This document shows positions 1 through 53,546 of a stretch of 64,000 nt of DNA, in pieces (position 1 is the first letter of the stretch; each line of letters begins with the position of its first letter). The stretch lies in contig NW_027590154.1 of the NCBI RefSeq assembly GCF_964213995.1, positions 930,001 to 994,000 on the forward strand, given 5' to 3'. A model generated the notes under the pieces. It did not search any database. It had not been told where the DNA came from and worked only from the letters and a program-made list of their open reading frames with translations. The stretch comes from Mustelus asterias (taxonomy: Eukaryota). A program made the position numbers and the translations under genes.

Positions 1-162
1 TGAAATAATAAAAGGCGTGAATGGCCAAAAGGCAGAGAAACTGAAATCAGAGGGCAGATTATTGTAGGTGGAGTTAAAAACGGGTGTCTAAATTTCCAAT
101 CCCGCCGCCCCCCCCCCCCCCCCCCACCCCACCTCCTCCGTTTCACAGAGTATACAACGAGA

Positions 163-666
163 ATGCAGCTCCTCAGCATACGTTGTGTGGGACGCATTCC
201 TTACAGGTAATTGCGGACCAAGCAGACTTCACCTTTTCTCTAATTTTCCACGCATATGTTAAATCAAATTTTAATCCGCAGCCCGTTTTATGTTTTTAAT
301 TCTAATATAACTTTTCAGATCAGGCTCATGGAGAGTTTGTCACTCAGCCTCTATCATCAGAGGTAAAGACAGATGGGGACGCGGTGATATTGACGTGTAA
401 CTATGAAACTACTGAAAGTGATTATGCATTGCACTGGAGCCAATAATACCCGGGTGCATAGCTCGAGTTCATGCTGTGGAGGAATACAAACAATGATGAA
501 TATAAAGCAGACTTTACTAAAAACCGTTTCTATGCCTCGCTAAAGATCACGATTAAATTCACCACTGTAACGATCTCGGGCCTGCAACTCACTGACGCTG
601 CTCTATATTATTGTGCTTTGTAAGTGTCACAATGATGAAAAGTAATCTCACCCCTGTGCAAAAGCT
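163..666 (+). pseudogene. TCR alpha/delta V pseudogene with 23-RSS
   Basis: Leader 163-206 is 44 nt, frameshifted relative to the 46-nt paralog at 17391. GT at 207, AG at 317-318. V exon reads DQAHGEFVTQP..VILTCNY..HWSQ*YPGA*LEF..LTDAALYYCAL*. RSS CACAATG(628-634)-23-GCAAAAGCT(658-666). Confidence 0.92.
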
Positions 667-1299
667 ATCTTTGGATAGTAGCTGGGAAATCCTGTGTGTT
701 AGAACTTGGGTGGAATCTTGGGCAGATGCAGCAACACTGAGCAACGACTCTATCAGAGGCTCAAACACACACCGAGAGGAAACCAAATTAACTTCGGACC
801 AAACTGTCACCTGGTTCCAGGAGCGGTGGAGAAAAGCAAACCACTGGACAGGCAGACTCAAAACAGAATCATAATTAATGACATCCGTTCTAACGCCACT
901 CTTACTATTTGCAGCTGCGTTAGTGTGATGAGTGCTGAGTTGGTAGTTAGTTAATCGCACCATCCCAAACTGAAATACAATTTCCCTACTTGAGAAATAA
1001 TTCTGTGATTGAAGATCAGAAGGTGGGAATGAAATGCTGGCCTGATAATGGTCAACAACAGTCAAAGAAATGGACAAGGAAAATATTCCAACATTGCGAG
1101 ATAGCAGGAAGGATAATGAAAACTGAGGGAAATCACAAATTCCGTTGGTTTTAAACACCCTTCATTAGCTTGTAAAATCTCCTGATTGTGTATAAACTGT
1201 GCCTGATACAGCAACATACTTTGATCAAAAATACTCTGTGAAAATAATGTGTCGGGTGGGGGTGGAGAATGTATTTAACTTCCAACCCATCTTCCTTCC

Positions 1300-2151
1300 A
1301 ACTCGCTGTTCAAGTTTGCGGCTGACACCACCGTAGTGGTTCGGGTCTCAAGCAATGATGAGACAGAGTACAGGAAAGGGATGGAGAATCTGGTAAACTG
1401 TTGCAACGGCAATAACCTCTCCCACAATGTCAACAAGACGAAGTAGAGAGTCGTCGACTTCAGGAAGCGTAGTGGCGAACATGCCTCTGCCTACACAAAC
1501 GGGGACGAAGTGGAAATGGTGGAGAGTTTCAAGTTACTCGATGTCCAGATCACCAACAACCTGCCCTGGTTCCCCCATGCAGACACTATAGTAAAGAATG
1601 CCTCTACTTTCTCAGAAGGCGAAGGAAATTTGCCATGTCTGATCCGACTCTCACAAACGTTTACAGATACTCCATAGAAAACATTTTTTCTGGTTGTATT
1701 AGGGCTTGGTAACTCTCCTCCCAAGACCAAGACCGCAAAAAGCTACAAAGAATTGTGAATGAAGCCGAGCCCAACACTCAAACCAGCCTCCCACCCATTG
1801 ACTCTCTGAATTTCCCGCTGCCTTGGGAAAGCAGCCAGTATATTCAAGGACCCCACGCACCAGAGATATTCAGTCTTCCACCTTATTTGATTGGGAAAAT
1901 GATACAGACGTCTGAGGGCAAGTACCAATTGACTCAAGAACAGCTTCTTCCTTGCTGCCATCAGACTTCTAAATGGACCTACCTCATATTAAGTTGATCT
2001 TTCTCTACACCCTAGCTATGACTGTAACACTATATTCTGCACTCTCTCATTTCCTTCTCTATCAACGGTACGCTTTGTCTATATAGCACGCAAGAAAAAT
2101 ACTTTTCTCTGTATGCTCATACATGTGACAATAATAAACCAAATCAAATCA
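1300..2151 (+). mobile_element. Decayed 3' fragment of a Rex1/Babar-like LINE
   Basis: Degenerate RT C-terminus (KFAADTTVV..SSNDETEYR..NVNKTK..VDFRKRSG..), followed by a 3' UTR ending in AATAAACCAAATCAAATCA. Confidence 0.75.
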
Positions 2152-3296
2152 CTTCATCATTATTCATTTGGATTTCAGGCCTTAATTCAGGCAATAGAAT
2201 ACAATTTAGCCACGTTTGTGAGGAAAACTTATTAAGTAACCGAAGTTACACGTAGAATCCAACAGTTAGTGGAAGAATGGATGTCAATACCGAAGGAGGT
2301 TTTGAATTATGATAAGGATGAGGGGTGATGCGGATCAATTCCCATAATGCTGCCTGATACTGCTGTTCTCCGGCTCTAGACTCCTCAGTCCGAGTGGAAA
2401 TACATGTCCCACACCAATGCACAACTGTTCGAAAGACAGAGACAGCAACCTCTCCAATAACACAGGTCAGGGAGGACAGAACAAAACGAGAACAACAAAC
2501 TGAAGTTATTGGCAGAGGAGCCAAAGAGGGATGAAGAGAGATATATATTTTAAAAATGTGTTTCTTGACGTTGACTTTCTTTTGAAATATAGTTTCCAGA
2601 TGCTTATCGCTGGGGGGATGGACAACGGATTCATTTTATTCAGCACTGTATCCCAAACCATCACTGCGACCACACCAAAAAATCAACTCAGAGGTTCAAG
2701 TTCAAAAATTGATAACATAAAATGGCATTTTTTCTGCATCACCCAGAAGAGGAAGATAGTACCCACAGGCCATACATTACACAAAAAATGAAAACAATTG
2801 CATGATGCAACAGATGAATTACGAAGAATTGTGGCCGCTTAGATCAGCGAGGACCAAATTGGTCAGTCAGTGTTGTGCATTCCCAAATGCTGATTGTCAT
2901 GTTTTGCGTGCTATTCGTTTCCTGTCATGGTGAAGTGTTTCTAGAATTGCTATCTTCTCTGTTTTATTCTGCTATCACCGCCTCACAGCACCTCTTCTCC
3001 AACTCTCGTACATAGCGAGCACACAAAACGCTATGAAAAATATTGTAGCTGAAAATATCGAGGTTCACGGTCATCCCGAAAAAGTAATATTTTGGCGAAG
3101 TCTTAGACCGATAGCTTTTTGAATTCCCTTGTTGAGTCAATGATTGAACAGGCTCATCATATCCGTCTTTCACCTTGCTTCACTACATTGCAATACATGA
3201 CAGTGTCTGCAAACTGAATCATACTGACAATTAGATTGCTGGAACCTATATTACCACCCACAGGTGCTTGAAACATTCCCCCCCCCCCAATATTTT

Positions 3297-3875
3297 CATA
3301 GAATCATAGAACCCTACAGCACAGAAAGAGGCCATTCGGCCCATCGAGTCTGCACCGACCACAATCCCACCCAGGCCCTACCCCCATATCCCTACATATT
3401 TACCCACGAATCCCTCTAACCTACGCATCTCAGGACACTAAGGGCAATTTTAGCATGGCCAATCAACCTAACCCGCACATCTTTGGAGTGTCAACCTGCA
3501 TATTGTATATGAAAATATTATAGAATCCCTCCAGTGCAGAAGGAAGCCATTCGGACAATCAAGTCTCCACCAACCTTCTGACAGAATGTCTTACACAGGC
3601 CCTCGCCCCCAAACTATCCCCGTAACCCCACACATTCAGCATGTCTAATCCATCTAACTACTCATCTTGGGACCCGAAGAGACTTTTTGTTATCATGGCC
3701 AATCCACCTGACTTGCACATCTTTGGACAGTGGGAGAAAATCGGAGCAACCGGAAGAAACCCACCCAGACACGGGAAGGATGCGCAAAATCTGCACAGAC
3801 AATCACCCAAGGCCAGACGCGAATCCAAGTCCCGGGTACTATTAAGCAGCAGGGTTAACCACTGTGGGACCATGG
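3297..3875 (-). mobile_element. Two adjacent HE1-like tRNA-derived SINE copies or fragments
   Basis: CATAGAAT-type tails at ~3297 and ~3518. The bodies match the reverse complement of the SINE at 58394-58711. Confidence 0.8.
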
Positions 3876-5331
3876 CATCCTCTGGAGATGCTCGCAAGAC
3901 ACATAAAAACAATTATTCATGTTCGCAAATATACACCACCTGCCTCTTCACGACTCTTCACATGCACGTGGCCATGAACGTTCAAGGTATTATTTGAACT
4001 TAAATTCGAATTATGCTCATTTGACATTTTAATCATTTGGGCCACACGAGGCAGTTTGGTGAAGTAACTCTGGAAATCTTTAATACTTTGTGGATACCTA
4101 TTAAATACAGGGCGGGACTTAGCTAGCGTGCTAAGGCTAGTTTGTCCTTGGGCGCAGGTTGACACTCAGTCTCTCTCTTCCCGTAACCTCAGCTTTCCTT
4201 TGGACAGCAGTCACTTGCTGCAGAAAGTGCTCAGTGAAAGTTTATGCCGATTAACTCATTCCAAGGTAGAACCCACAGGTGACCAATGAAGTTATTGCAT
4301 CACAATTAGCCTAGGTTGGCAGGGGCTAATTCTTAATTGCCCGACGGGGTGCGTTAGCAATTTGTGATTGGTCTGGGTGGGCAGTTAGCAATTGGGTTCT
4401 CGATGGTGATGGTTGTCTATTAATGCAATTTCTCATTGTGCCCTGACTGGCCCTCTAAGTATTAATTACTCGTGGAACCATCCCTCTCATGAACAGAATG
4501 TTCCCTTGCCCTTTTGTTAAGGATGCGGGAAATTTGCTGTCTTGTCGCCATGATTGATATCTTGAGCTGATCGTCTCAAAACCTCATTTAATTGATTTGC
4601 GTCAGACCCCTTTCAGCGACTCTATGTTTTGAATTTCGATGTTACTTTTCTCTATGATTTCGTGAAATAAGTTTCTTTACGTTTAAAACAAAAAATATGA
4701 AATGGTAAATTTGCTTATATCCTTAAATGCAATGAAGATATTTACAAATTACAAATATAAAATATATTGCTATTTATAGTATGTAAATGAGTGTACTTTT
4801 CATGTCTGCATTTACTAGATATAACACAGCAAGCAATATCTCATAATATTGAGTCAGGGAATGTCTCATTGATCTACAGGAAGTCATTAAAACTGGACCT
4901 TAGCAACGTGTTTTTGATCAGACAACTACTTTCCAAATGATGCTTGTGTCGCTTCAATCGGTGCTTGGTCTGAGTTCATTAAAAAATCAGAATTGCTTTG
5001 TAACATTACAAAGTTACGCAAGTTACACTAACTCTAACCAAAATACATATCAACGCTTGAAAGTGATTGGTCTGCTAAACATAGTACAGTACATTCAACT
5101 CACAGATATCAAAACTTAAAAGAATGACAGCGTTTTAAATTCTAAACTTGAAAAAAAACAAAGAGTTACATGGTGTGAAATAAAGTGACTTGCCTTAAAC
5201 ATGACGAGTTAAACTGCACTAAATCAATGCACAAAACTGAATGTTTTTTTTAAATTTTAAGGCCACCAGTTCTTTACCTTGTGTCAAGTTTGAGTGCGAA
5301 GCGACAACCAAGTCATGTGCAGTCACCTTTT

Positions 5332-7850
5332 CTATTGTTTAAAGTAACCAGTGATAATGGAGAAGGGACACAGAAGCACCTTCTTCAGCTCCCCTCGGAA
5401 TTTGGTCTGGGCCACAGAGTAGATGAAGACGTTATTGCAGGAACTGAGTAATTGAAGCATGTTGGTCGTCTCCTGAAAGATGTATTCTGGGTCATTGAAA
5501 TCTAAGCTGTTGAAGTAGCTCTCGCCTGTAATCTGCACATAGAGGAAATGTCCGAAGTAAGTCACCCACATGACGAGGAAGCTGAGGGAGATGGCAAAGA
5601 GCAGGACAATTGACTTCTTGCGGTTGGCCATCTCAGGGTCTTCCTGACTTTCGGAGCTCCGGAGCAGCCTTCGGGCTCTGCTCGCAGCTAAGATGTGTCT
5701 TACAGTCAGAGCGTTGAGCAAAAGGATGAGGATGAACGGGAGAAAAGGGGTTAAGACATGATCCAGCCAGTCAAAGGCCTGCCACGTCGGCGAGGCACTG
5801 AAGCTGGTCTTGATATCACAGAACCAGGCCACCCCATCCATGGTGAATAATGGTTGGTAGGTGAAATAGAATGGAATGTTCTTGATGCAGCTGAGGGCAC
5901 AGACTATGCCGATAACCAACAAGGCCGTTTTCTCTGTGCAGTATCTTATTTTCAGGTTCTGCCAGCAGATGGCCACATAACGATCAATGGTGAAAGCCAC
6001 TGTCAGCCAGACTGATCCATCCAGGCTGATAGAACCCAGAATCATGGTGTGCGCGCATGTTCGGTGAGTGAAAAGCACACTGTAGCCAAAGTAGATCCGT
6101 CCAATCCGGTTCAGGATGACACCAGTGATGATGACAAAGAAATCACTAACTGCTATCGCTACCAGATAGTAGGTGATGCACCGGGAGAGTCCACACCGAC
6201 CTCGGGATAAGATTATAATCGCCAAAACGTTGGCTGTGAGAGATAAGAAGAGAGAGATGTTGCTGAGCAGACGACAAGTTCGATGTGCTTACTAATGCAA
6301 TTGGTTATCAAATCCTTCCTGATCCGTCTCTTTGTTACCTCGAGACTCGGACTATTCGGAACTATTTTGTAATTTTTCAAAATTTAGCACTGGATTAAAC
6401 ATTTCCAAAACAGGAGACATTTCTATCAGTCCCAGTCCGAACTCCAATCTCTTGTCAGTGTGCCAATGCCCAGAGCTCGCTACCCAACAGGGCAGGCGAT
6501 GGCCTATTATTGTTAGAAATTCATGTAGAAATGTAACTAAAGATCTGGGGACCTGAGTTCGAATCCCCACAGGGAAGATGGTGGCATTTGAAATCAGTGT
6601 TAAAGTAATCTGGAATTAAGAATATACTTATTGCCATGAAACAATTATTGTTTGTTGGAAAAAAAATCTGGTTCACTAATGTCCTTAGGAAAGGAAATCT
6701 GCTGTCCTTATCTGGTCTGGCCTACATGTAACACCTAAGCCACAACAGCGTGTTCAGCTCTCAACTGCGTTCTGAAATGGCCTATCAAGCCACTCAGTTC
6801 ATGTGCGACTAAGGGTGGGTAATAAATGCTGACTAGCCAACGACGCCATGTCCCACGAATGAATTTTTTTAAAAACTTAAACTCGTCCAAAATACGCGCG
6901 TCAAACCTCGTATCTCTTGCAAGATGATTTTCATTGGCCTCATTTGTAAATCTCCCTTTCATTAATCTTTTGCTTTGAATATTAAATACCTCCACTCTCT
7001 CACCATCCCACCGCTACAACTATCTGAGATCACAGCATTTCTCCAATCATATATTTTGTATGTCCCCTCATATTAATCCCTCCATCGGTGATGGTTATTC
7101 CTTTCTTCAATTTTCTACATGCTATTTGGAATACGACGTTAACAATGGAGTCTGCCCGGTGGGATCTCACTGCACTGAAACCATTGCATCCTTCTAGCAA
7201 TCGCACAGTCAATTCATGTGATCACTGAATGCATCTTTTTTTTCCACAATTCATGTACTAGATGGTTGAACTGTGATAATTTATTCCCCACACTGCAATA
7301 ATATCAGTGCTCGAAAATGTAAGTTGCTACATTGCCAAAGCTCATATTCATGGTAAGATCCGTTGCTCCGAATTTTTCATAGTAACTTCGTTGCAGTGTT
7401 AATGTAGGCCTATGTGACAATAATGAATAAACTTGAACTTTAAATTTTAAATAACACTAAAACAGTAGGTTACATTTAGTAAATTAGAATAAAAGCCAAA
7501 TTTCAACAATAAAATAAATCAGTGTTCATACAAAGTCATACACTTCAGCTAGTGATTTAATAAATGGTATTTCTATGAATGTGCAGCTAAATAAATAAAA
7601 TGCTATATTGTAAGCTTCATAGTGTAAGTGCAACGAATGCACGGTAATTCATCATAAACGCGGTTGAAAGCACAGACGGTGCAGAAAATTAGAAAAAATA
7701 AGCTCGATTCTTAAAGAAGAGAAAAAAGAAATGTGTAGATTCAGAGAAAATAAATAATGTGATTTGGATTCATTACTTACCAGGGGCACCAATAACAGCG
7801 AGAATGGGATAGGAAATGGCAAAGAAGAGTCCATTCGCTGGCCCGTGCAT
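5332..7850 (-). CDS. Two-exon class A GPCR of the chondrichthyan GPR139-like family, 323 aa, intact; join(7850..7781, 6233..5332)
   Basis: Exon 1 MHGPANGLFFAISYPILAVIGAP ends at a phase-1 GTAAGT donor. A polypyrimidine-CAG acceptor at 6235-6234 opens exon 2 (ANVLAIIILSRGRCGLS..SVWLTVAFTIDRYVAIC..SSCNNVFIY). The spliced CDS is 972 nt, in frame, with 7 hydrophobic segments and a DRY motif. Confidence 0.92.
6480..6870 (+). mobile_element. tRNA-head SINE (second family) in the GPCR intron
   Basis: B-box-like GAGTTCGAATCC at ~6556 and tail ..GTCCCACGAATGAA. Related copies lie on the minus strand at ~26880-27225 and ~58970-59295. Confidence 0.7.
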
Positions 7851-9520
7851 TGTCTATCAGAAACTAACGGAATTAGCAAAGCGAAGGTCATTCGATCTGC
7901 GACACATTCAAGGTGTCTCTCACTTATTCTGACTGAACGTCTCCGGAGGGACCATTACATTGCAACATACACGTCAGTTACAGTTCACCAAACAAACAGA
8001 TGAAATCACAGTGTCATGCCTTCCATTTGTAACTTGCACAAGGGGGATGATTACATTTTATTCATGGATGAACTGATGGCTGCGAACTTGTGGTCCAGCC
8101 ACCCAGCCCCACCACAAGCCATGCCTTTCTGTCTTCCTCAGGGAGAAATGCTGGTGTTAGATATTTCCAACTCTGCCAACTTCCCAATCATTTCCTGCTT
8201 TCAGGTGTCAGGTTATGTCACGTGTGTGGTTTACTGGTAAGCATTTCAGTATTCCAGTCTTCAGTTTCATCTAAAAATGTTAACGATTTAATACTGAACT
8301 GTTTGAAAACTATTTTAGCTAACGGGGGCAGACAACTGAGCTGGAGACGATTGCATTAAAATCCTGGGCCATTTTGAAGGTTCAGAATTCTTCATTGGTA
8401 CTGCTAAACTGCAAATGCAGGAAGGACCTTAAGGTACTCCGGATCAGAATTTCTGATGCAGCAACAATTGGTATAAGATAAACAGATATATATATTTTAG
8501 GTGAAATAAAAACTGAGGCATGGCAAGCGAATATCAAACCATGCGTAGTGGCAACTGAGACGCTGGCAATTAAATGTAGAAAGATACACGCTCTGGGGTG
8601 ACAATAAAGGAAGAAACCAAATGCGACGTGCACAGCGAAAGGAGTAAAATGATATTTAGTTTCGTACAGTAGCAATTAATCGGACCTATTTTAATACAAA
8701 CTGAGATATACGTCGAATTCAGCAAGTAAGGTGTGGTCTTGTAGGCCTGACCTACTGAAACGGAGGTACGACCTAATGTTGTAAAGACTGACGAGGTCAC
8801 TATAGTTAATTCCTGGGCATGACACGGAACAGTGCAGTGAAAATAGGGACAAGGCCAACGCAATGCACAATGATATGTCGTCTCGTGCAATAATAACTGG
8901 GACGAGGCCGAGTCAATGTGATGTGAACGGAGACCTAGCTTACGTAAGAAGATGCATGATCCAGAGTAATATAAACAGCGATGAAGTCAAGTCAAAGAAT
9001 GAACGGCGACATGTTCTAGAGTAGTACTAAGTAACAACCTCTAGTGTAATTGAAACAAAGGGATAGACTGGTGCAGTGACAACGGGGAAAGTGAAAACAT
9101 AATGAAAACAGATAGAGGATCAACTTCGTTAACAGTTGTGATCGAGTTAATTGTCGTCCAGGTATAGATTGGAACTTGTGCAGTAATTTCTTGAATAGGT
9201 GACTGATGTATTAAGGCAGCATGCCATGGACGTGCATAATGATAAACAAGGTTTTCTGAAACTGAGGCAGAGCTAGTGTAATAATCACGGGACCAGAGAC
9301 GAGTAGAATAAAAAAAGTCTATAGAAACGTGGAATTAATGTGATGATGACATTAATATGATATTAGTACCAGGAGACAGGTACCAATGAAATCATGATGA
9401 AGGCTCGATCAACACTAACGGAGGCAGAGAGCTTAGTGTCATAATCAAGAAGGGGAATGCACAATAATAATCAGAGGGTTTGTGAAATGCTAACAGAGGT
9501 TCAAATTCCAAATCCAACTT

Positions 9521-9911
9521 TCAGCACCCGATTGTCCTTCTAGGAAAGGGGTGCCGATAAAGAGTTACGTTTTCTGAGAAGTGCTATGCTGAGCTGTAAA
9601 TTGTTCGGCAGGGAAACCAGTTAGTTAAAATGTGAGAGCAACAATTGTTTTTTTGCCTTGTACTGCAACAATAATCAACCTGGATTGTTGAATGTCAGGA
9701 CTCCAGCAATAGAATGAATCTATTCAAAGAAAGTGTCATTATAATGAGATTTATGCATTTGGATGGACAGAAGGACATTGCAGATATTCTGCTGTGCGGG
9801 GAGATGGATCACGACATACGGCTTGTATCTGTGAAGTGCGGTCAGGAGTTTTTCTGTGACTTACGGACGATCATGCTAGTGTACCGTACAATCAGCCAAT
9901 TTGTGTGAAGT
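9521..9911 (+). repeat. Local diverged duplication; partner at ~10909-11581 is split by a SINE
   Basis: GGGTG(T)CCGATAAAGAGTTA..CTGTAAATTGTTCGGCAGG..GACTTACGGACGATCATGCT..TGTGTGAAGT is shared with 11222-11581. 9521-9548 resembles ~10909-10937. Confidence 0.85.
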
Positions 9912-10031
9912 ATTGTGGTTACGAAGTCCCCTCTTGGTCTTTGTTGCTGTCTGCATGGCAGCCTATAATATTTAAGAGACACTTCCTACTGATTCTGTTA
10001 TTTCCTGGAGCCTCTAACCGCAGCCACAGGG

Positions 10032-10561
10032 TTTATTGATCAGAGAGTGTTGCTGGATTGGAGAATCGTAACAGACAACGAACGGTTTTTATAAGTTATA
10101 AGTTCATGGGCTTGATCTTCAAAACGAGCCCCATGTACAGAGCTCCCACAATCTTCATTGTCCTTCCTAGAGTTGGTTCATTCTCTGTCACTGCGGACAG
10201 TAACTCTGGATGTGGCAGAACTGAAAAATAATAAGTACTAAATGTAAACATTCTTTTAAATACAAAGCACAGGTTGTGCTGGTACAGGGAACATGTGTTT
10301 AAATGAGAGAGTTCACTCTGCGAGGATATTTTCAGTAGGGTGTATCATGTTGTAAATGGATCATCAGTTGCTGGATTGAGGGAAGCTGTCGGGTCGAAGG
10401 CTCCGGCATTCTGATCCGGCCGAGGTCCCGCCAACGCGTTCAGAGTGTTGGTAAACATAATCCCGGCAGAATTGAAAAAAAGCGTGAAAGAATACCTCAG
10501 ATAACAGCACATGATCCGGCCTCCCAACTCCTTACAGTTGGGGAAAGGAGGAGGACAGTTC
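10032..10561 (-). pseudogene. Possible decayed antigen-receptor C1 exon plus TM/cytoplasmic exon
   Basis: Exon-like 10561-10317 (GTVLLLSPT..GSCAVI*GILSRFF..) ends at a GTGAAC donor, followed by a 96-nt intron and a TTTTTCAG acceptor at 10222-10221. The next exon reads ..TMKIVGALYMGLVLK.., with AATAAA at 10037-10032. Similarity judged by eye only. Confidence 0.3.
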
Positions 10562-10754
10562 CAGTGACAGAAAAACGCTCCCACCATCCCCTCCTCAACA
10601 GACTCAGGTGTGCGGGGAATTCAGATCCGGATTACAGATCCATAGAGGCGATCGATATCTTTAGTTCCTTCTTTTAACATGAGTTATTTTCACAACACAT
10701 AACCAGAGACCGTGGATGCATGAGGAACATCCAACGCTGTCGTGCACACTGGAT

Positions 10755-10895
10755 AAAAGCAAGTCACTGCGGATGCTGGAATCGAAACCAAAAGAGAAAA
10801 TGCTGGAAAATCTCAGCAGGTCTGGCAGAATCTTAAGGAGAGAAAAGAGTTGAAGTTTCGAGTCCACATGATCCTTTGACAAAGATTTGTCAAAG
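10755..10895. mobile_element. Short interspersed repeat remnant, tentatively a Penelope-like element terminus; related copy at ~35815-35930
   Basis: AAAATGCTGGAAAATC(T/A)CAGCAGGTCTG..GGAGAGAAAAGAG..GTTTCGAGTCCA is shared between both sites. Confidence 0.5.
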
Positions 10896-10937
10896 TTCCA
10901 TTGCAACCGTCAGCACCAGATTTTCCTTCTGAGAAAA

Positions 10938-12353: not shown

Positions 12354-12370
12354 GATTGGAATGATTGATT

Positions 12371-17852: not shown

Positions 17853-17891
17853 CACAGTGACAGAAAACAAGCTCAGCCCTGTACAAAAACT
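17853..17891 (+). promoter_or_regulatory. 23-spacer recombination signal sequence
   Basis: CACAGTG-23 nt-ACAAAAACT directly after the V coding end. Confidence 0.95.
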
Positions 17892-41350: not shown

Positions 41351-43869
41351 CTATTGTTTAAAGTAACCAGTGATAATGGAGAAGGGACACAGAAGCACCT
41401 TCTTCAGCTCCCCTCGGAATTTGGTCTGGGCCACAGAGTAGATGAAGACGTTATTGCAGGAACTGAGTAATTGAAGCATGTTGGTCGTCTCCTGAAAGAT
41501 GTATTCTGGGTCATTGAAATCTAAGCTGTTGAAGTAGCTCTCGCCTGTAATCTGCACATAGAGGAAATGTCCGAAGTAAGTCACCCACATGACGAGGAAG
41601 CTGAGGGAGATGGCAAAGAGCAGGACAATTGACTTCTTGCGGTTGGCCATCTCAGGGTCTTCCTGACTTTCGGAGCTCCGGAGCAGCCTTCGGGCTCTGC
41701 TCGCAGCTAAGATGTGTCTTACAGTCAGAGCGTTGAGCAAAAGGATGAGGATGAACGGGAGAAAAGGGGTTAAGACATGATCCAGCCAGTCAAAGGCCTG
41801 CCACGTCGGCGAGGCACTGAAGCTGGTCTTGATATCACAGAACCAGGCCACCCCATCCATGGTGAATAATGGTTGGTAGGTGAAATAGAATGGAATGTTC
41901 TTGATGCAGCTGAGGGCACAGACTATGCCGATAACCAACAAGGCCGTTTTCTCTGTGCAGTATCTTATTTTCAGGTTCTGCCAGCAGATGGCCACATAAC
42001 GATCAATGGTGAAAGCCACTGTCAGCCAGACTGATCCATCCAGGCTGATAGAACCCAGAATCATGGTGTGCGCGCATGTTCGGTGAGTGAAAAGCACACT
42101 GTAGCCAAAGTAGATCCGTCCAATCCGGTTCAGGATGACACCAGTGATGATGACAAAGAAATCACTAACTGCTATCGCTACCAGATAGTAGGTGATGCAC
42201 CGGGAGAGTCCACACCGACCTCGGGATAAGATTATAATCGCCAAAACGTTGGCTGTGAGAGATAAGAAGAGAGAGATGTTGCTGAGCAGACGACAAGTTC
42301 GATGTGCTTACTAATGCAATTGGTTATCAAATCCTTCCTGATCCGTCTCTTTGTTACCTCGAGACTCGGACTATTCGGAACTATTTTGTAATTTTTCAAA
42401 ATTTAGCACTGGATTAAACATTTCCAAAACAGGAGACATTTCTATCAGTCCCAGTCCGAACTCCAATCTCTTGTCAGTGTGCCAATGCCCAGAGCTCGCT
42501 ACCCAACAGGGCAGGCGATGGCCTATTATTGTTAGAAATTCATGTAGAAATGTAACTAAAGATCTGGGGACCTGAGTTCGAATCCCCACAGGGAAGATGG
42601 TGGCATTTGAAATCAGTGTTAAAGTAATCTGGAATTAAGAATATACTTATTGCCATGAAACAATTATTGTTTGTTGGAAAAAAAATCTGGTTCACTAATG
42701 TCCTTAGGAAAGGAAATCTGCTGTCCTTATCTGGTCTGGCCTACATGTAACACCTAAGCCACAACAGCGTGTTCAGCTCTCAACTGCGTTCTGAAATGGC
42801 CTATCAAGCCACTCAGTTCATGTGCGACTAAGGGTGGGTAATAAATGCTGACTAGCCAACGACGCCATGTCCCACGAATGAATTTTTTTAAAAACTTAAA
42901 CTCGTCCAAAATACGCGCGTCAAACCTCGTATCTCTTGCAAGATGATTTTCATTGGCCTCATTTGTAAATCTCCCTTTCATTAATCTTTTGCTTTGAATA
43001 TTAAATACCTCCACTCTCTCACCATCCCACCGCTACAACTATCTGAGATCACAGCATTTCTCCAATCATATATTTTGTATGTCCCCTCATATTAATCCCT
43101 CCATCGGTGATGGTTATTCCTTTCTTCAATTTTCTACATGCTATTTGGAATACGACGTTAACAATGGAGTCTGCCCGGTGGGATCTCACTGCACTGAAAC
43201 CATTGCATCCTTCTAGCAATCGCACAGTCAATTCATGTGATCACTGAATGCATCTTTTTTTTCCACAATTCATGTACTAGATGGTTGAACTGTGATAATT
43301 TATTCCCCACACTGCAATAATATCAGTGCTCGAAAATGTAAGTTGCTACATTGCCAAAGCTCATATTCATGGTAAGATCCGTTGCTCCGAATTTTTCATA
43401 GTAACTTCGTTGCAGTGTTAATGTAGGCCTATGTGACAATAATGAATAAACTTGAACTTTAAATTTTAAATAACACTAAAACAGTAGGTTACATTTAGTA
43501 AATTAGAATAAAAGCCAAATTTCAACAATAAAATAAATCAGTGTTCATACAAAGTCATACACTTCAGCTAGTGATTTAATAAATGGTATTTCTATGAATG
43601 TGCAGCTAAATAAATAAAATGCTATATTGTAAGCTTCATAGTGTAAGTGCAACGAATGCACGGTAATTCATCATAAACGCGGTTGAAAGCACAGACGGTG
43701 CAGAAAATTAGAAAAAATAAGCTCGATTCTTAAAGAAGAGAAAAAAGAAATGTGTAGATTCAGAGAAAATAAATAATGTGATTTGGATTCATTACTTACC
43801 AGGGGCACCAATAACAGCGAGAATGGGATAGGAAATGGCAAAGAAGAGTCCATTCGCTGGCCCGTGCAT
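41351..43869 (-). CDS. Two-exon GPR139-like GPCR, identical duplicate; join(43869..43800, 42252..41351)
   Basis: Same exons and translation as 5332-7850. Confidence 0.92.
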
Positions 43870-46800
43870 TGTCTATCAGAAACTAACGGAATTAGCAAAG
43901 CGAAGGTCATTCGATCTGCGACACATTCAAGGTGTCTCTCACTTATTCTGACTGAACGTCTCCGGAGGGACCATTACATTGCAACATACACGTCAGTTAC
44001 AGTTCACCAAACAAACAGATGAAATCACAGTGTCATGCCTTCCATTTGTAACTTGCACAAGGGGGATGATTACATTTTATTCATGGATGAACTGATGGCT
44101 GCGAACTTGTGGTCCAGCCACCCAGCCCCACCACAAGCCATGCCTTTCTGTCTTCCTCAGGGAGAAATGCTGGTGTTAGATATTTCCAACTCTGCCAACT
44201 TCCCAATCATTTCCTGCTTTCAGGTGTCAGGTTATGTCACGTGTGTGGTTTACTGGTAAGCATTTCAGTATTCCAGTCTTCAGTTTCATCTAAAAATGTT
44301 AACGATTTAATACTGAACTGTTTGAAAACTATTTTAGCTAACGGGGGCAGACAACTGAGCTGGAGACGATTGCATTAAAATCCTGGGCCATTTTGAAGGT
44401 TCAGAATTCTTCATTGGTACTGCTAAACTGCAAATGCAGGAAGGACCTTAAGGTACTCCGGATCAGAATTTCTGATGCAGCAACAATTGGTATAAGATAA
44501 ACAGATATATATATTTTAGGTGAAATAAAAACTGAGGCATGGCAAGCGAATATCAAACCATGCGTAGTGGCAACTGAGACGCTGGCAATTAAATGTAGAA
44601 AGATACACGCTCTGGGGTGACAATAAAGGAAGAAACCAAATGCGACGTGCACAGCGAAAGGAGTAAAATGATATTTAGTTTCGTACAGTAGCAATTAATC
44701 GGACCTATTTTAATACAAACTGAGATATACGTCGAATTCAGCAAGTAAGGTGTGGTCTTGTAGGCCTGACCTACTGAAACGGAGGTACGACCTAATGTTG
44801 TAAAGACTGACGAGGTCACTATAGTTAATTCCTGGGCATGACACGGAACAGTGCAGTGAAAATAGGGACAAGGCCAACGCAATGCACAATGATATGTCGT
44901 CTCGTGCAATAATAACTGGGACGAGGCCGAGTCAATGTGATGTGAACGGAGACCTAGCTTACGTAAGAAGATGCATGATCCAGAGTAATATAAACAGCGA
45001 TGAAGTCAAGTCAAAGAATGAACGGCGACATGTTCTAGAGTAGTACTAAGTAACAACCTCTAGTGTAATTGAAACAAAGGGATAGACTGGTGCAGTGACA
45101 ACGGGGAAAGTGAAAACATAATGAAAACAGATAGAGGATCAACTTCGTTAACAGTTGTGATCGAGTTAATTGTCGTCCAGGTATAGATTGGAACTTGTGC
45201 AGTAATTTCTTGAATAGGTGACTGATGTATTAAGGCAGCATGCCATGGACGTGCATAATGATAAACAAGGTTTTCTGAAACTGAGGCAGAGCTAGTGTAA
45301 TAATCACGGGACCAGAGACGAGTAGAATAAAAAAAGTCTATAGAAACGTGGAATTAATGTGATGATGACATTAATATGATATTAGTACCAGGAGACAGGT
45401 ACCAATGAAATCATGATGAAGGCTCGATCAACACTAACGGAGGCAGAGAGCTTAGTGTCATAATCAAGAAGGGGAATGCACAATAATAATCAGAGGGTTT
45501 GTGAAATGCTAACAGAGGTTCAAATTCCAAATCCAACTTTCAGCACCCGATTGTCCTTCTAGGAAAGGGGTGCCGATAAAGAGTTACGTTTTCTGAGAAG
45601 TGCTATGCTGAGCTGTAAATTGTTCGGCAGGGAAACCAGTTAGTTAAAATGTGAGAGCAACAATTGTTTTTTTGCCTTGTACTGCAACAATAATCAACCT
45701 GGATTGTTGAATGTCAGGACTCCAGCAATAGAATGAATCTATTCAAAGAAAGTGTCATTATAATGAGATTTATGCATTTGGATGGACAGAAGGACATTGC
45801 AGATATTCTGCTGTGCGGGGAGATGGATCACGACATACGGCTTGTATCTGTGAAGTGCGGTCAGGAGTTTTTCTGTGACTTACGGACGATCATGCTAGTG
45901 TACCGTACAATCAGCCAATTTGTGTGAAGTATTGTGGTTACGAAGTCCCCTCTTGGTCTTTGTTGCTGTCTGCATGGCAGCCTATAATATTTAAGAGACA
46001 CTTCCTACTGATTCTGTTATTTCCTGGAGCCTCTAACCGCAGCCACAGGGTTTATTGATCAGAGAGTGTTGCTGGATTGGAGAATCGTAACAGACAACGA
46101 ACGGTTTTTATAAGTTATAAGTTCATGGGCTTGATCTTCAAAACGAGCCCCATGTACAGAGCTCCCACAATCTTCATTGTCCTTCCTAGAGTTGGTTCAT
46201 TCTCTGTCACTGCGGACAGTAACTCTGGATGTGGCAGAACTGAAAAATAATAAGTACTAAATGTAAACATTCTTTTAAATACAAAGCACAGGTTGTGCTG
46301 GTACAGGGAACATGTGTTTAAATGAGAGAGTTCACTCTGCGAGGATATTTTCAGTAGGGTGTATCATGTTGTAAATGGATCATCAGTTGCTGGATTGAGG
46401 GAAGCTGTCGGGTCGAAGGCTCCGGCATTCTGATCCGGCCGAGGTCCCGCCAACGCGTTCAGAGTGTTGGTAAACATAATCCCGGCAGAATTGAAAAAAA
46501 GCGTGAAAGAATACCTCAGATAACAGCACATGATCCGGCCTCCCAACTCCTTACAGTTGGGGAAAGGAGGAGGACAGTTCCAGTGACAGAAAAACGCTCC
46601 CACCATCCCCTCCTCAACAGACTCAGGTGTGCGGGGAATTCAGATCCGGATTACAGATCCATAGAGGCGATCGATATCTTTAGTTCCTTCTTTTAACATG
46701 AGTTATTTTCACAACACATAACCAGAGACCGTGGATGCATGAGGAACATCCAACGCTGTCGTGCACACTGGATAAAAGCAAGTCACTGCGGATGCTGGAA

Positions 46801-46956
46801 TCGAAACCAAAAGAGAAAATGCTGGAAAATCTCAGCAGGTCTGGCAGAATCTTAAGGAGAGAAAAGAGTTGAAGTTTCGAGTCCACATGATCCTTTGACA
46901 AAGATTTGTCAAAGTTCCATTGCAACCGTCAGCACCAGATTTTCCTTCTGAGAAAA

Positions 46957-47239
46957 AGTAAAGTTTATTTATTAGTCACAAGTAAGGCTTACACTAACAC
47001 TGCAATTAAGTTACTGTGAAATTCCCCCAGTCGCCACAGTCCAGCGCCTGTTCGGGTCAATGCACCTAACCAGCAAATCATTCATACTGTGGGAAGAAAC
47101 CAGAGCACCCGGAGGAAACCCCCGCAGACATGGGGAGAACGTGCAAACTCCACACAGACAGTGACCCAAGCCAGAAATCGAACCAGCGTTCCCAGCGCTG
47201 TGCAGCAACAGTGCTAACACTGTGTTACCGTGCCGCCCA
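46957..47239 (-). mobile_element. tRNA-head SINE (duplicate)
   Basis: Duplicate of 10938-11220. Confidence 0.8.
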
Positions 47240-47933
47240 AGGGTGCCCATAAAGAGTTAAGTTTTCTGATGAGTTCTATGCTGATCTGTAAATTGTTCGG
47301 CAGGAAAGCCAGTGAGTTAAAATGTGAGATCAACATTTTTTACCTGGTGCTGCAACAATGACCAACTTGGATTTTTGAATGTTAGGACCCCAGCAATAAA
47401 AAGAAATCTAATCAAATGAAATGGTATTATAATGGGAGTTTTGCATTTGGATGGACAGTGGGACATTGCGGATATTCTGCTGTGCTGGGAGCTGGAACAG
47501 AACAGCGGGCTTGTGTCTGTGAAGTGCGGCCAAACGTTTTTCTATGACTTACGGACGATCATGCTCGTTTACCGTGCAATCAGTCAATGTGTGTGAAGTG
47601 GACACTGCCCTCTACAAAGCAACTCCAAGGGAGATAAGGTTAAGCATTGACAAACCGTGGGTCAGAACATCCGGTGGGGTCACGGGAAGAGTTTCTGGGT
47701 TTGGGAGCTTCGAGGCAGCAACAGCTGCGGAGCTTCAACTGCATGTTCACTCTTCCTGCAACTTTTAAATCCTCAAATGTCCTTTTTAGAAGTTGGGTGT
47801 GGCCCAATTTACCGTGGTGAGGGCCTCATCTAAATATTTTGGTCCACTTCTGAGATCCAGTCTCCCTGATCAGTCCAGCTCTGCTGCCTTCATCTCCCTG
47901 TCATATAAACCTTCAGCTCCAGGGAGCAGAGCG

Positions 47934-48372
47934 ATGGGAATCCTCCTTGTATTCGCCCTGTGTGTCTGCTTAGCCCGTGAGTACCGATCAAAATAACCAA
48001 CATTGTGTGGATGGAAGCTAAAGTTCTCCAGTCCATCCCAATTATAGACACTGTCTGGGCCCCATTGTGTGGTTCGGCTCTGATGGTCCATTCAACTCTC
48101 TGTGTTTAATTTCCAGGATCTTTCATTCAGTCAGTGATACAGAGCCCTGCTGCGGTGACCAGGAAGGAGTGTCAGTCTCTCACCATCACCTGCATTTTCC
48201 ATGATATCGTTATAACTTAGGAAATGGACACTTCTTCGGACAAACTCAGACCCGGACAGGGTGGGAGCGGGTCTACAGCGGAGGGAGATTTGTAATGTCT
48301 ATGAACAAAGCCGCAGAAGAGACGTTTTCACTGGAAATTCAGGATGTGAAAATTGTAGACACCGCCACCTAT
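47934..48372 (+). pseudogene. NAR-TCR-type V pseudogene (duplicate)
   Basis: Duplicate of 11915-12353. Confidence 0.8.
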
Positions 48373-48898
48373 GATTGGAATGATTGATTGCATTTGCAAA
48401 CGGTCACAAAATATGTGACCCTGGTCTAAAACAGCTGGAAACAGGAACCACAGTAGCTGCTGTTTGTCTCAAGACTCCACAGTCCCAGCAGGTACCCAAT
48501 GGTAATCGCGAGGATGTTGCTGAATTTATACTTGAAGCACTGTGTAACTGGGATATTCACAGTGGGAGAGACCTCAGCAAATTTAAATAAAAATTAAATA
48601 ACATTTCTCAGGGCCGGATAGTGAATCATTGGGCTCATGTTAGTATCGCTGTTTTCTGGTTTAATGCCGTTTCAATCCGACCACTCATAGCGTTCTTTGT
48701 CATATATTTTTTTCGATTTATATGAGGTGAATATTTCCTATCTGGGGTTATTCACGAAGAGCTCAGGGCATAACAAAGAACAGTTGGAACCAAAGGAGAC
48801 TTCGAAACGTTTAACATTGTTTATTTATTTAAACCACCCGAGGAAATGCATCGTTCTGACTGTATGGTGGGATTTTTTTGGCAGTTTGAATTGTCGCT

Positions 48899-48977
48899 GG
48901 TTCTTGTACGGAGCGGTGTCACTATCGTACTATTATGATCCAAGATGGATCCGGGACGGAGGTGACAGTCATAGCTG
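48899..48977 (+). pseudogene. NAR-TCR-type J segment with 12-RSS (duplicate)
   Basis: Duplicate of 12880-12958. Confidence 0.82.
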
Positions 48978-49383
48978 GTAAGTGACTCCAAACCCCGCCG
49001 AGTTACGGATTTTCCCAGTTCGTGTTCACAGTCAGATTATTATTGGAATCTGAATCACTTCAATTCCATTGGAACGAAAACGGAACTGCTTCCTGTGGAA
49101 TCTTTTCCATTGCAGATTTCGATTTGGGCGCAGGATACGTTTCTGGAGACGGGCCCAGTTCTGTCCTGGGAAACGTTTGTGTGTCACCTGATGGAAGAGG
49201 GTCGGTGCAGGGGGAGATGGGGGTGGGTATTGGCGTTGGTTGACAGCATCTGGGCCATTGCTGGTTTAACGTGCAGATGTGGGATACAAACATTGACATG
49301 GGCTTTCACATATTTAATCGCTTTTACTGAGCAGATTGTCGACACTCTAGACTCCACTCTTCGTGTTAACTGCAAGGGAAGGC

Positions 49384-50580
49384 ACTGAGAAACCTCTGAG
49401 AAATACTGCATGCATTGGTGATCATTTTCCAAAATTCGATTGACTCTGGAGGAGTTCCTACAGATTTAAGGATGGCAAGTGTAACCCCACTCTTTTAAAA
49501 GGGAGGAAGAGAGAAAAGGAATAATTACAGAGCATTTAGCCTGACATGCTATGAGGAGAGATTGGGTAGACTGGGGTTGTTCTCCTTGGAAAGACGGAGG
49601 ATGAGGGGAGATCTAATAGAGGTGTACAACATTATGAAGGGTATAGATAGGGTGAACAGTGGGAAGCTTTTTCCCAGGTCGGAGGTGACGATCACGAGGG
49701 GTCACGGGCTCAAGCTGAGAGGGGCGAAGTATAACTCAGATATCAGAGGGACGTTTTTTACACAGAGGGTGGTGGGGGCCTGGAATGCGCTGCCAAGTAG
49801 GGTGGTGGAGGCAGGCACGCTGACATCGTTTAAGACTTACCTGGATAGTCACATGAGCAGCCTGGGAATGGAGGGATACAAACGATTGGTCTAGTTGGAC
49901 CAAGGAGCGGCACAGGCTTGGAGGGCCGAAGGGCCTGTTTCCTGTGCTGTACTGTTCTTTGATCTCTTTGTTCTTTGACATCTGTGATGGGGAAGATACA
50001 GGTCTATTATAAAAGTCGTGACAACAGAATATTTGAAAAGAATTAACGGAATTGAAAAAAACATGGAACGATGAGAGGCAAGTCATGCTTAGCAAATCTA
50101 CTGGAGTTTTCTGGAAGATGTAAATAGTAAAACAGATAAGGGAGAACGAGTAGATGTAGTGTAGTTGCAGTTTCAGAAGCTTTTGATAAGACCTGCTAAA
50201 GAGGTTAGTGGCCAAATGTAAAGTATATGCGAGAAGTGGTATTGTATTGGCATGGGTCGAGAGTTGGTTGATGGACGGGGAACAGAGAGTGGGAATAAAT
50301 GTGTGTTTTTCTGAGTGGCAGGCAGCGACGATTGGGATATCGCACGGACCAGTGGTGGGAGCAAAATATAAACATGATCTGGATGAGGGGATCAAAAGTA
50401 GCACTTCCAAGTTTGTTGACGACACAATAATTGGTGGAATTGTGAGTTGTGTGGAGGATGGAAAGAGGTTTTAAAGAGATTTAAACAAGTTGAGCGAATT
50501 GCCAAACACATGGCTAAATGTGACGTTATACCACTCAGTATCAAAAAAAAGTGGAGGAAAAGTATTATTTGAACGATGAT
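49384..50580 (+). mobile_element. Old CR1 with nested young CR1 fragment at 49548-49975 (duplicate)
   Basis: Duplicate of 13365-14561. Confidence 0.8.
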
Positions 50581-53546
50581 ATAGAAACATAGAAACATAC
50601 AAAACTACAGCACAAAACAGGCCCTTCGGCCTCACAAGTTGTGCCGAACATATCCCTACCTTTTAGGCCTACCTATAACCTTCCATCCTATTAAGTCCCA
50701 TGTACTCATCCAGGAGTCTCTTAAAAGACCGTATTGAGTTTGCCTCCACCACCACTGACGGCAGCCGATTCCACTCGCCCTCTGTGTCAAAAACTTCCCC
50801 CTAACATTTCCCCTGTACCTACACCACAGCACCTTAAACCTGTGTACTCTCGTAGCTGACATTTCCACCCTGGGAAAAAGCCTCTGAGAGTCCACCTGAT
50901 CTATGCCTCGCAACACCTTATATACCTCTATTAGGTCTCCACTCATCCTAAGTCTCTCCAAGGAGAAAAGACCGAGCTCCCTCAGCATATCCTCATAAGG
51001 CATGTCACTCAATCCAGCCAACATCCTTGTAAATGGCCTCTGCACCCTTTCAATCTTTTCCACATCCTTCCTGTAATGAGGCGACCAGAACTGATCACAG
51101 TTCTCCAAGTGGGGTCTGACGAGGGTCTGATATAGCTGCATCATTATCCCCGGACTCATAGACTCAATCGCTCGATTGATAAAGGCCAGCACACCATACG
51201 CCTTCTGAACCACCTCCTCTACCTGCGGGGCCGATTTTAGAGTCCTGTGGACCAGGACCCCAAGGTCCTTCTGATCCTCTACAGTACTAAGAGTCTTTCC
51301 CTTTATATTGTACTCCTTCATCCCATTTGACCTGCCAAAATGATTCGAAGTCCATCTGCCACTTCTCCGCCCAGTCTTGCATCCTATCTATGTCCCTCTG
51401 TAACTTCTGACATCCCTCCAGACTATCCACAACCCCACCAACCTTCGTGTCGTCGGCAAACTTACCAACCCATCCCTCCACTTCCTCATCCAGGTCATTT
51501 ATGAAAATGCCAAACAGCAAGGGTCCCAGAACAGATCCCTGCGGCACACCACTGGTGACCGACCTCCATTTAGAAAAGGACCCATCTATACACACGCTCT
51601 GCCTCCTTTGGGCAAGCCAGTTCTGGATCCACAGGGCAGCAGCCCCTTGGATCTCATGCCCTCTCACTTTTTCTAGAAGCCTTGCATGGGGGACCTTATT
51701 GAACGCCTTGCTAAAATCCATATAAACCACATCTACCGCTTTCCCTTCGTCAATGTGTTTAGTCACATTTTCGAAGAACTCCACCTTGACAAAGCCATGC
51801 TGAGTATTCTTGAGCATACTAAACCTCTCTAAATGCTCATAAATCCTGTCCCCCAGGATCTTCTCCATCAGCTTACCAACCACTGAGGTTAGACTCAGCG
51901 GTCGGTAATTTCCTGGGCTATCCCTATTCCCCTTCTTGAAAATAGTAACCACATCCGCAATCCTCCAATCCTCCGGCACCTCTCCCGTCTCCATCGATGA
52001 CGCAAAGATCATCACCAGAGGCTCTGTAATCTCTTCCCTCGCCTCCAACAGTAACCTGGGGTACATCCCATCGGGACCCGGTGACTTATCGATCTTGATG
52101 CCATTCAAAGATTCCAGCACATCCTCTTTGTTAAAGTCCACATACTCAGTTTTTTCAGTCCACCGCAAGCCCGCAGTACATCCACCCAGGTCCTTCTCCT
52201 CTGTGAAAACCGAGGCAAAATACTCATTAAGCACCTCTGCCATTTCTACTGGTTCCGTACAGACTTTCCCGCCTTCACCTTTTATAGGCCCTATTCCTTC
52301 ACGTCTCTTCCTTTTATTCTTCACATATTTATAGAATGCCTTAATCCTACCTGTCTTCCACAAGGCCTTCTCGTGACCCCTTCTGGCTCTCCTAATTTCC
52401 ATCTTTAGTCCCTTCCTACAAGTCGTATACTCACCTAGATCCCTATCTTCGCCAAGCTTTCTGAACCTTTTGTACGCTTTCCTTTTCTTCTCGACTAGGT
52501 CCCGCACAGCTTTTGTGCACCACAGTTCCTTTAAACTACCAACTCCTCTCTGTCTGCTCGGAACATTGTCCTGTAGAACCCTAGACAGACATTCCTTGAA
52601 AAACTGCCAACTCTCTTCAGTAGATTTTCCCGAGAATACCTCCTTCCAATTTACTTCTCTAATTTGCTGCCTTATGTCTTCATATTTCCCCTTACTCCAC
52701 ATAAACGCTTTCCTAGCTTACCTGATCCTCTCTTTTTCCAATGCAAGCATAAAGGAGATAGAGTTATGATCGCTATGCCCAAGATGCTCTCCCACTGAGA
52801 GATCTGACACCTGTCCACGCTCCTTGGTCAGTATCAGATCAAGTACAGCCTCTCCTCTTGTAGGCTTGTCCACATGTTGTGTCAGGAAAACCCTCCTGAA
52901 CACACCTAACGAACTCCTCCCCATCCAATCCCCTTACCCTCGGGATATTCCAATCTATGTTTGGGAAATTCAAGTCTCCCATCACAACAACTCTGCTATT
53001 ATTGCAACTCTCCAGGATCTGTTTCCCTATCTGCTCCTCCACCTCCCTGTCACTATTGGGCGGCCTATAGAAAACTCCCAGCAAAGTGATCGACCCCTTC
53101 CCACTCCGAACTTCCACCCACAGAGACTCTGTAGACCATCCCTCCACAGCATACACCTTCTCTGCAGCTGTGACACTATTCCTGATCAGCAGTGCCACTC
53201 CACCCCCTCTCTTGCCTCCCTCCCTGTCCTTCCTGAAACATCTGAATCCCGGCACCTGTAGTATCCAGCCCTGTCCCTGAGACATCCAAGTCTCCGTAAT
53301 GGCCACCACATCACACTTCCAGGCATCGATCCACGCTCTGAGCACATCCCCTTTATTCACTATACTCCTGGCATTAAAGTAAACACATCTCAATCCTTTG
53401 TTCTGAGCTCTCCCCTTCTCTATCCCCAGTCCATCCTCCCTCTTGCACCGTCTATAACCCTTCTCTGTTTGCGAGCTAACTTCCTTGCTCCCAGTCACCT
53501 CGTCTTGATCCCCTCCCTCCAACCTATCTAGTTTAAACTCTCCCCA
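50581..53546 (-). mobile_element. CR1 LINE covering essentially the whole of ORF2 (frameshifted); uncut version of 14562-17167
   Basis: ORF 52839-53522 adds the endonuclease N-terminus (CVYFNARS..ITETW). Flanked by an ATATA-like target-site duplication within the older CR1. Confidence 0.93.

Follow-up and report, generated by a model that had tools for sequence, protein, structure and literature searches.

A block of the shark TCR alpha/delta V field is present on contig C122 as an exact head-to-tail duplication with a period of 36,019 bases, and this arrangement is probably a real and young germline copy-number gain. We favour this reading because the depth of the unit in sample S16 is about three times that of one paralogue copy, because short homologies are found at the join, and because the closest pair of sequences compared carries 10-22 differences per 36 kb. 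"The window" is the whole stretch of DNA analysed (64,000 bases), and unprefixed coordinates refer to it.

Structure and identity of the duplicated block

In the copy-versus-copy alignment, positions 1-17167 equal 36020-53186 with 0 mismatches and 0 gaps, as the original observation of a 17,167-bp repeat at a constant offset of 36,019 without indels had stated, and past 17167 the identity drops at once to about 0.25, which is chance level. The preceding copy, predicted to start about 18.9 kb before the window, was found by the upstream check at window position -18,853; with the flanks included, C122:911,147-947,167 equals C122:947,166-983,186 over 36,021 bases with 0 differences and a period of 36,019. 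The unit had been placed at 17168-53186, a geometry that holds except that the true unit, 17166-53186, is two bases longer, since the AT at 17166-17167 is common to both sides.

1..17167, no strand: tail of copy 1, which starts at window position -18,853 (C122:911,147)
17166..53186, no strand: copy 2, whole, 36,021 bases, identical to copy 1
17166..17167, no strand: duplication junction, microhomology AT (2 bases)

The two full copies on C122 overlap by two bases at the join without an N gap, and C122:20,001-1,130,427 (1.11 Mb) contains no N letters at all, which is meaningful provided that the genome copy keeps gaps as N. Head-to-tail copies, one novel join and natural flanks outside are the arrangement of a tandem duplication, and the polarity is given by paralogues that continue through the natural left flank and through the right flank and by the LINE at the unit's end, which keeps its two target-site repeats in copy 2 only.

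The identity extends, as claimed, across the three homopolymers of at least 10 bases in the unit (14 G, 18 C and 11 C), which are equal in both copies. The same observation bears on an assembly artefact, in which one real copy was written twice (homotype false duplication), e.g. through a chimeric read, or where an untrimmed contig overlap was closed gap-free. We regard this explanation as rather unlikely, but it would account for several features: one shared consensus written twice would give 0 differences even in G/C runs of 14-18 bases, whereas the C140/C71 pair, the most similar pair compared, differs at 7 long G/C runs in 80 kb; the unit is the only exact repeat of such size in the contig, the runner-up exact direct repeat in C122:20,001-1,130,427 having 1,195 bases; and the region is scattered over many unplaced contigs, several of them of round-thousand length. 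Against an artefact speaks the gap-free join. The description of the duplication as extremely recent agrees with the 0 differences but is weaker than it looks, since up to about 59,000 generations are allowed at a mutation rate of 7e-10 (shark rate).

Compared over 11 windows of 36,021 bases, the C140/C71 pair differs at 10-22 sites per window, and its longest identical run is 14.8 kb. Set against these values, the 0 differences of the unit led us to reject a heterotype false duplication (two alleles in tandem), a homozygous stretch aside. C108 and C138 were likewise rejected as the other haplotype, as they have about 95% identity and cover the right 16 kb only. Among the 40 candidates scored per genome search, there was neither a third near-identical copy of the unit nor a haplotig matching the unit or its right flank.

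Gene content of the unit

The cargo consists of six TCR alpha/delta-type V segments and a V fragment, a dead NAR V-J and an intact two-exon GPCR, which belongs to a large local family.

17391..17891, plus strand: V1, intact TCR alpha/delta-type V (leader 17391-17436, V exon 17546-17852, consensus-like 23-RSS at 17853)
21612..21943, plus strand: V2, open V exon and 23-RSS, AG acceptor absent from the usual place
22961..23137, minus strand: V fragment, interrupted by a LINE
25126..25600, minus strand: V3, open V exon and 23-RSS, stop in the leader, conserved Trp replaced
26473..26801, minus strand: V4, degenerate V, second Cys lost, without Pfam match, 23-RSS present
33163..33668, plus strand: V5, pseudogene with stops, frameshift and weak RSS
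36182..36680 (copy 1: 163-661), plus strand: V6, pseudogene with two stops
41351..43869 (copy 1: 5332-7850), minus strand: rhodopsin-family GPCR, intact, two exons, 323 aa
47934..48977 (copy 1: 11915-12958), plus strand: NAR-type leader, V and J with splice donor, dead NAR-TCR remnant

V1 is the one clearly intact V of the unit: the leader, an in-frame V exon with Cys/Trp/Cys and an RSS with a 23-base spacer are all present and jointly assign it to the alpha/delta type; in copy 2 it keeps only 225 bases of its native upstream DNA. V2, for which no leader was seen in 300 bases upstream, is probably non-functional, and V3 is a probable pseudogene. One V of the unit already has paralogues in the field with identities of about 95, 89-92 and 83-87%.

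NAR-TCR cassettes contain an N-terminal V related to the V of IgNAR (PMC3457774). Such a V is found in the unit: 25 of the 28 PDB matches with E<=0.1 bear VNAR, antigen-receptor or shark nanobody-type labels (best 1.5e-8), and its DNA is 78% identical to an open NAR V on the same contig. What is missing is an open NAR V that has an RSS, D and J of its own: the V has a frameshift, a lost second Cys and a stop; the J is present with a damaged heptamer, and no D segment was found in the cassette. Nor did four V queries, which a divergent V could escape, find a supporting TCR-delta V downstream of copy 2 until C122:1,060,900. The gene labels given originally are thus right for TCR V segments, a NAR-type V-J and a GPCR, but the NAR-TCR part is a frameshifted remnant for which no supporting V was found, and most V segments are dead. 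For this reason, the predicted gain in working genes is only a single V and a single GPCR; six dead V pieces and the dead NAR V-J would be passengers. Across the join, 4,587 bases separate the NAR J splice donor of copy 1 from the intact V1 exon downstream of it, and the two agree in strand and splice phase.

The junction and its possible formation

The join fuses the middle of an older LINE, which we take to be of the CR1 type from its tail and domains, to sequence that begins 225 bases before the leader of a TCR V, and the 41-mer across it occurs once in the assembly.

14564..17167, minus strand: CR1-type LINE of copy 1, cut by the junction inside the endonuclease domain
50583..53547, minus strand: LINE of copy 2 in the originally inserted form, with endonuclease and RT, 5'-truncated, ATAT on both sides

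Both target-site repeats of the LINE are found only in copy 2, while the LINE of copy 1 is without its last 380 bases and without the right target-site repeat; the LINE insertion predates the duplication. The identity to dispersed copies is 97-98%. A giant target-site duplication or another insertion-coupled event was rejected, as the LINE carries a 4-base target repeat of its own, has diverged by 2-3% from related elements and occurs in both copies. With a LINE on one side and V-upstream DNA on the other, the join is not a product of recombination between repeats, and NAHR between LINEs was rejected because a LINE occurs at one breakpoint only. A RAG-mediated join was rejected since neither breakpoint is flush with an RSS heptamer: the nearest RSS is 687 bases away, and the CACAGC-like hexamers 12-14 bases off were not called as RSS.

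Around the breakpoints 13 of 40 bases match, so that the microhomology is short and without long homology. Both parent sequences share the 6-mer GCTGTG in register 12 bases upstream of the join, and the 7-mer TATTCCT is common to both at the join, out of register. When about 20,000 position pairs were drawn at random, 0.85% had an in-register run of at least 6, 2.4% a shared word of at least 7 and 0.2% both; these measures were picked after the join had been seen (post hoc). Neither the two-base microhomology alone (16.5% of random pairs) nor the total number of matches around the join (19%) exceeds chance. With the same post hoc reservation, short homologies exceeding chance argue against an artefact.

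Non-recurrent microhomology-mediated tandem duplications (MMBIR/FoSTeS/MMEJ) are head-to-tail and show microhomology of a few bases without long repeats at the breakpoints, and the shark join shares these three properties. The duplication probably arose as a single event, through a template switch guided by microhomology or through end-joining, routes that sequence alone cannot separate. Replication (or repair) may have stalled inside the LINE and re-primed 36 kb back on a few matching bases, whereupon the block would have been copied again. On the reading favoured here, the join exists in the DNA of the animal.

Depth and bridging in public sequencing runs

Evidence on depth and bridging came from contigs assembled from public runs, with X1-X20 (share 0.09-0.26) left out. 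In S16, eight unit-specific pieces have depths of 27-33 as compared to 7.8-11.8 per assembled paralogue copy (six shared pieces). The ratio of the unit to one paralogue copy is 2.5-3.8 (mean 3.2), assuming that each assembled paralogue copy equals one haplotype copy present in S16; with a third fewer paralogue copies in that sample, the unit would simply be diploid. A single 787-base contig from another locus has a depth of 21 in S16, i.e. a unit/single-locus ratio of 1.4. Taken by paralogue-copy depth, the data suggest about three copies of the unit in S16, which argues against an artefact and would place the gain on one chromosome, with three copies per cell in this one deeply sequenced sample. 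Piece 1 of X21 was left out of the ratio, being partly off the stretch. The depths of X23 and X24 were dropped because of missing scaling with paralogue number (in X23, depth 8.7 on a piece common to 11.5 copies) and because of loose ends resembling transposase adapters.

An artefact would also agree with the bridging data, as no piece bridging the join was present in any of the four runs among the pieces (32 of 1,269) and loose ends (24 of 74) listed, while the natural left flank running into 17166 was carried by contigs in all four runs among the same pieces. This test is weak, since alternative paths were pruned, as shown by an X21 contig that crosses several sites of known variation between paralogues and no longer carries the base of the assembly at 17204. 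Metagenome contigs, an uninformative set, gave 0 matches to the junction pattern.

A real join with a wrong count of two, i.e. at least three identical tandem copies collapsed, or a somatic mosaic or circular form pulled into the contig, appears very improbable to us. By established assembly logic, reads shorter than the unit cannot count identical 36-kb units, and three copies on one chromosome would explain a depth ratio of about 3 as well as 2+1 does, but there is no direct sign of such a state, and a RAG excision circle is unlikely because neither breakpoint lies at an RSS.

Comparison with known systems

The type of event favoured here, a duplication of a TCR homology unit, is already known. 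In the bovine TRA/TRD locus, as far as described in PMC4289303, multi-gene TCR alpha/delta V blocks are replicated as homology units with their pseudogenes ("collateral" expansion). The shark unit is likewise a multi-gene V block with pseudogenes carried along; unlike the bovine blocks in that description, it is repeated with 100% identity, its single join can be read, and it includes a GPCR and a NAR V-J remnant. The human TRBV insertion/deletion polymorphism of about 21 kb (TRBV4-3, TRBV3-2, TRBV6-2/6-3), according to the portion of PMC8740489 concerned with it, segregates widely, results in two indistinguishable V genes and alters usage. Both cases involve a copy-number unit of tens of kb in a TCR V array, a putative polymorphism in the shark.

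False duplications, in the relevant parts of PMC9516828, usually show gaps, although some are joined by read-unsupported sequence instead, which would suit an artefact here; the homotype class lacks heterozygous k-mers. The shark copies resemble them in being adjacent and identical and differ in the absence of a gap and in an indirect depth estimate, from S16, that is not at half-level and points to a gain. Homotype cases in that account contain read errors or are of read length, whereas the shark unit is error-free over 36 kb. For elasmobranchs, PMC12227049 describes in its section 6 an antigen-receptor complex of TCR alpha/delta, NAR-TCR and IgH V segments. The shark field agrees with it in having mixed V types in both orientations, with NAR-type V and VH-like segments sharing one contig; copy-number units and interspersed GPCRs, as in the shark unit, do not appear in that section.

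Significance

If real, the duplication is a breakpoint-resolved case, of the youngest tier, of the block duplication behind the shark TCR/GPCR field. It would then supply a simple PCR marker by which copy-number variation can be followed in immune loci of sharks, and show a non-homologous route, neither repeat-mediated nor RAG-dependent, by which mostly dead cargo is copied. If false, it is a warning of false duplications without gaps, by which the V and GPCR counts of the assembly would be inflated. The textbook view is unchanged under either outcome. There is a slim chance that the duplication segregates and displays the birth of a two-V receptor layout (NAR-V-J followed by TCR-V, as in NAR-TCR); its breakpoint, both clean and datable, would serve to measure how often blocks are duplicated in shark receptor loci. 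In this unit the NAR V is dead; a like event with a live one would make a new NAR-TCR cassette in one step.

Structure of the duplication

Alignment of window 1-17167 with 36020-53186 gave 0 mismatches and 0 gaps, which confirms the perfect tandem repeat with an offset of 36,019 proposed in the original prediction. The preceding copy, predicted to start about 18.9 kb before the window, is present in full: with 100 kb of flank added on each side, positions 911,147-947,167 of the contig (C122) are identical to 947,166-983,186, with 36,021 bases per copy, 0 differences and a period of 36,019. The two copies overlap by AT (window 17166-17167). A scan of C122:20,001-1,130,427 found no N, the next-longest exact direct repeat in this range measures 1,195 bases, and the 41-base sequence of the join between the copies occurs only once in the assembly (genome size 3.68 Gb). 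Paralogous V loci extend through the natural left flank present before copy 1, and two other contigs, C108 and C138, each of which holds one copy of a paralogue, 95% identical, of the right-hand 16 kb, run into the flank behind copy 2. Since paralogues read through both flanks, the assembled structure is A-[unit][unit]-B with a single derived join.

Gene content of the unit

The features of the unit are as follows (coordinates of copy 2 where given).

TCR alpha/delta-type V segments, rhodopsin-family GPCR and NAR-type elements of the unit
V1: 17391-17891, + strand; intact (leader, in-frame V exon, 23-RSS)
V2: open exon, acceptor missing
V3: open exon, leader with stop
V4, V5, V6 and one V fragment: degenerate
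GPCR: 41351-43869, - strand; intact, two exons, 323 aa
NAR-type leader, V and J: 47934-48977, + strand (copy 1, 11915-12958); V frameshifted, second Cys lost

The remainder consists mostly of LINE fragments. Because of this, and because the other V pieces and the NAR V are damaged, the working gain would be one V and one GPCR. The NAR-type V is similar to shark VNAR structures (best E value 1.5e-8) and shows 78% DNA identity to an open NAR V elsewhere on C122. The proposed TCR V / NAR-TCR / GPCR content holds for the V segments and the GPCR, but the NAR part is a dead V-J, behind which a supporting V was looked for and not found. At C122:392,200-399,150, an open NAR V (+) faces a NAR J with stacked 23-RSSs, and among the J segments seen, this one resembles that of the window most closely.

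The occurrence of TCR V, IgNAR-like V and VH-like segments on C122 points to an elasmobranch antigen-receptor region, for which such mixed content is described in PMC12227049. The region is highly duplicated and spread over many contigs; genome searches yielded 25 further long matches to the V1 neighbourhood, which fall into three identity classes (about 95, 89-92 and 83-87%), and at least 40 matches to the GPCR. When window 32332-48600 was compared with C108:929,324-945,504, identity was 88% at both ends but 99.0-99.7% in a stretch of about 6 kb surrounding the GPCR (38,300-44,300), where identity to C138 is 97%; the peak against C108 looks like a recent gene conversion or exchange with the receptor gene at its centre.

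Anatomy of the join and proposed mechanism

Left of the join lies a minus-strand LINE, 97-98% similar to dispersed copies and broken within its endonuclease domain. In copy 2 it continues for a further 380 bases with ATAT at each side, in agreement with an empty site in C108, so the insertion is older than the duplication. The sequence right of the join begins 225 bases upstream of the V1 ATG. Neither long homology between the breakpoints nor an RSS flush with the join was found. Among about 20,000 random pairs, the 2-base overlap occurs in 16.5%, the total match count around the join in 19%, an in-register 6-mer in 0.85%, a shared 7-mer in 2.4% and both in 0.2%; the first two are frequent by chance, the others less so. 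As these measures were picked after the join had been seen, the short homologies lend modest support to a homology-guided biochemical event. The favoured mechanism is a single template switch or microhomology-mediated end-joining, by which 36 kb would have been re-copied. On that chromosome, the dose of one GPCR is predicted to be doubled, as is that of V1, provided that 225 bases of promoter suffice. As a by-product, the join places the NAR J donor of copy 1 upstream of the V1 acceptor, at a distance of 4,587 bases, on the same strand and with both in phase 1. This layout mimics NAR-TCR anatomy as outlined in PMC3457774, from which it differs in its dead NAR V and in the leader that V1 retains.

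Assembly evidence

Typical signs of a false duplication are heterozygous differences, gaps and half depth, although some such duplications are joined by unsupported sequence (PMC9516828); the duplication on C122 has neither a gap nor a difference between copies. The placement of two alleles in tandem is unlikely unless the stretch is homozygous, because the closest yardstick pair, contigs C140 and C71, carries 10-22 events per 36,021-base window (11 windows; longest identical run 14.8 kb) versus 0 here. This pair, either haplotypes or a very recent segmental duplication, shows 99.65% identity over 90.8 kb aligned, with 26 substitutions and 7 indels in the cleanest 80 kb, all 7 indels being located in homopolymer or dinucleotide runs. 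C140:582,156-672,885 is collinear with C71:15,789,252-15,880,000, with 99.96% identity for 80 kb, after which the final 11 kb differ by substitutions at about 2%. That the assembler wrote one consensus twice is less likely but plausible: the long G/C runs identical in both copies fit such an artefact, but also joint correction of reads from two identical copies. Assemblers may correct reads of identical copies together. Contigs C89, C106, C108, C112, C138, C140, C232 and C699 are each an exact multiple of 1,000 bases long; this suggests that sequences of this region were cut at map-bin positions during assembly.

Public runs and copy number

All 24 runs listed are available as contigs, the best being X21 and X22 (both from sample S16; shares 0.75 and 0.52), X23 and X24. 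None of the 32 pieces listed out of 1,269 (X21-X24 contigs on window 16900-18400) bridges the join, a weak indication of an artefact, and natural-flank contigs enter 17166 in 4/4 runs. The missing bridge weighs little, however, because alternative paths were pruned from the run contigs: that of X21 runs without a break across several variant sites known from the paralogues and has the paralogue base G at 17204, though unit-specific words occur at a depth of about 30. Where a repeat has a depth above 100,000, a short link leading out of it would be a candidate for pruning.

In S16, which may not be the assembled animal, unit-specific depth was 27-33 (8 pieces) and depth per assembled paralogue copy 7.8-11.8 (6 shared pieces), with copies counted from words of 20/25 paralogous loci. 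Unit depth equals 2.5-3.8 assembled paralogue copies (mean 3.2), on the assumption that each of these is one haplotype copy present in S16; one 787-base contig of another locus has a depth of 21, giving a unit ratio of 1.4. Excluded from the ratio were X23 and X24 (depth not scaling with paralogue number; adapter-like loose ends) and X21 piece 1 (partly off the stretch). The simplest reading is a depth of about 10 per haplotype and three unit copies, i.e., a heterozygous gain in S16; it would not hold if the number of paralogue copies in S16 were a third below that in the assembly. Overall, the duplication is probably a real, germline copy-number gain in the animal; an assembly artefact is less likely, and a real join with another copy number or of somatic origin is improbable.

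Age and comparison with other loci

At 7e-10 substitutions per base per generation, the rate measured in the epaulette shark (PMC10587355), 0 differences in 36,021 bases place the split at less than about 59,000 generations at 95% (29,000-297,000 across the rate interval), with an even chance of zero differences at about 14,000. The "extremely recent" copy of the original prediction is young for the locus, but within this limit not necessarily new in this animal, and gene conversion or consensus smoothing would push its age up. Bovine TRA/TRD likewise grew by the duplication of blocks in which pseudogenes were carried along (PMC4289303), and human TRB has a polymorphic 21-kb unit whose V genes cannot be told apart (PMC8740489); the shark duplication, if real, is a further instance of the block duplication known from TCR loci.

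Other features

C122:322,814-371,873 and 1,082,004-1,119,821 form a large inverted segmental duplication (89-98%), both arms of which end at a VH-like segment. Window 56990-57502 is a minisatellite (66-base period, 7.8 copies) within a 2.3-kb segment repeated at many sites of the gene field, and 62421-63617 contains a LINE whose esterase/OSK-like ORF1 continues into an endonuclease domain within a single open reading frame.
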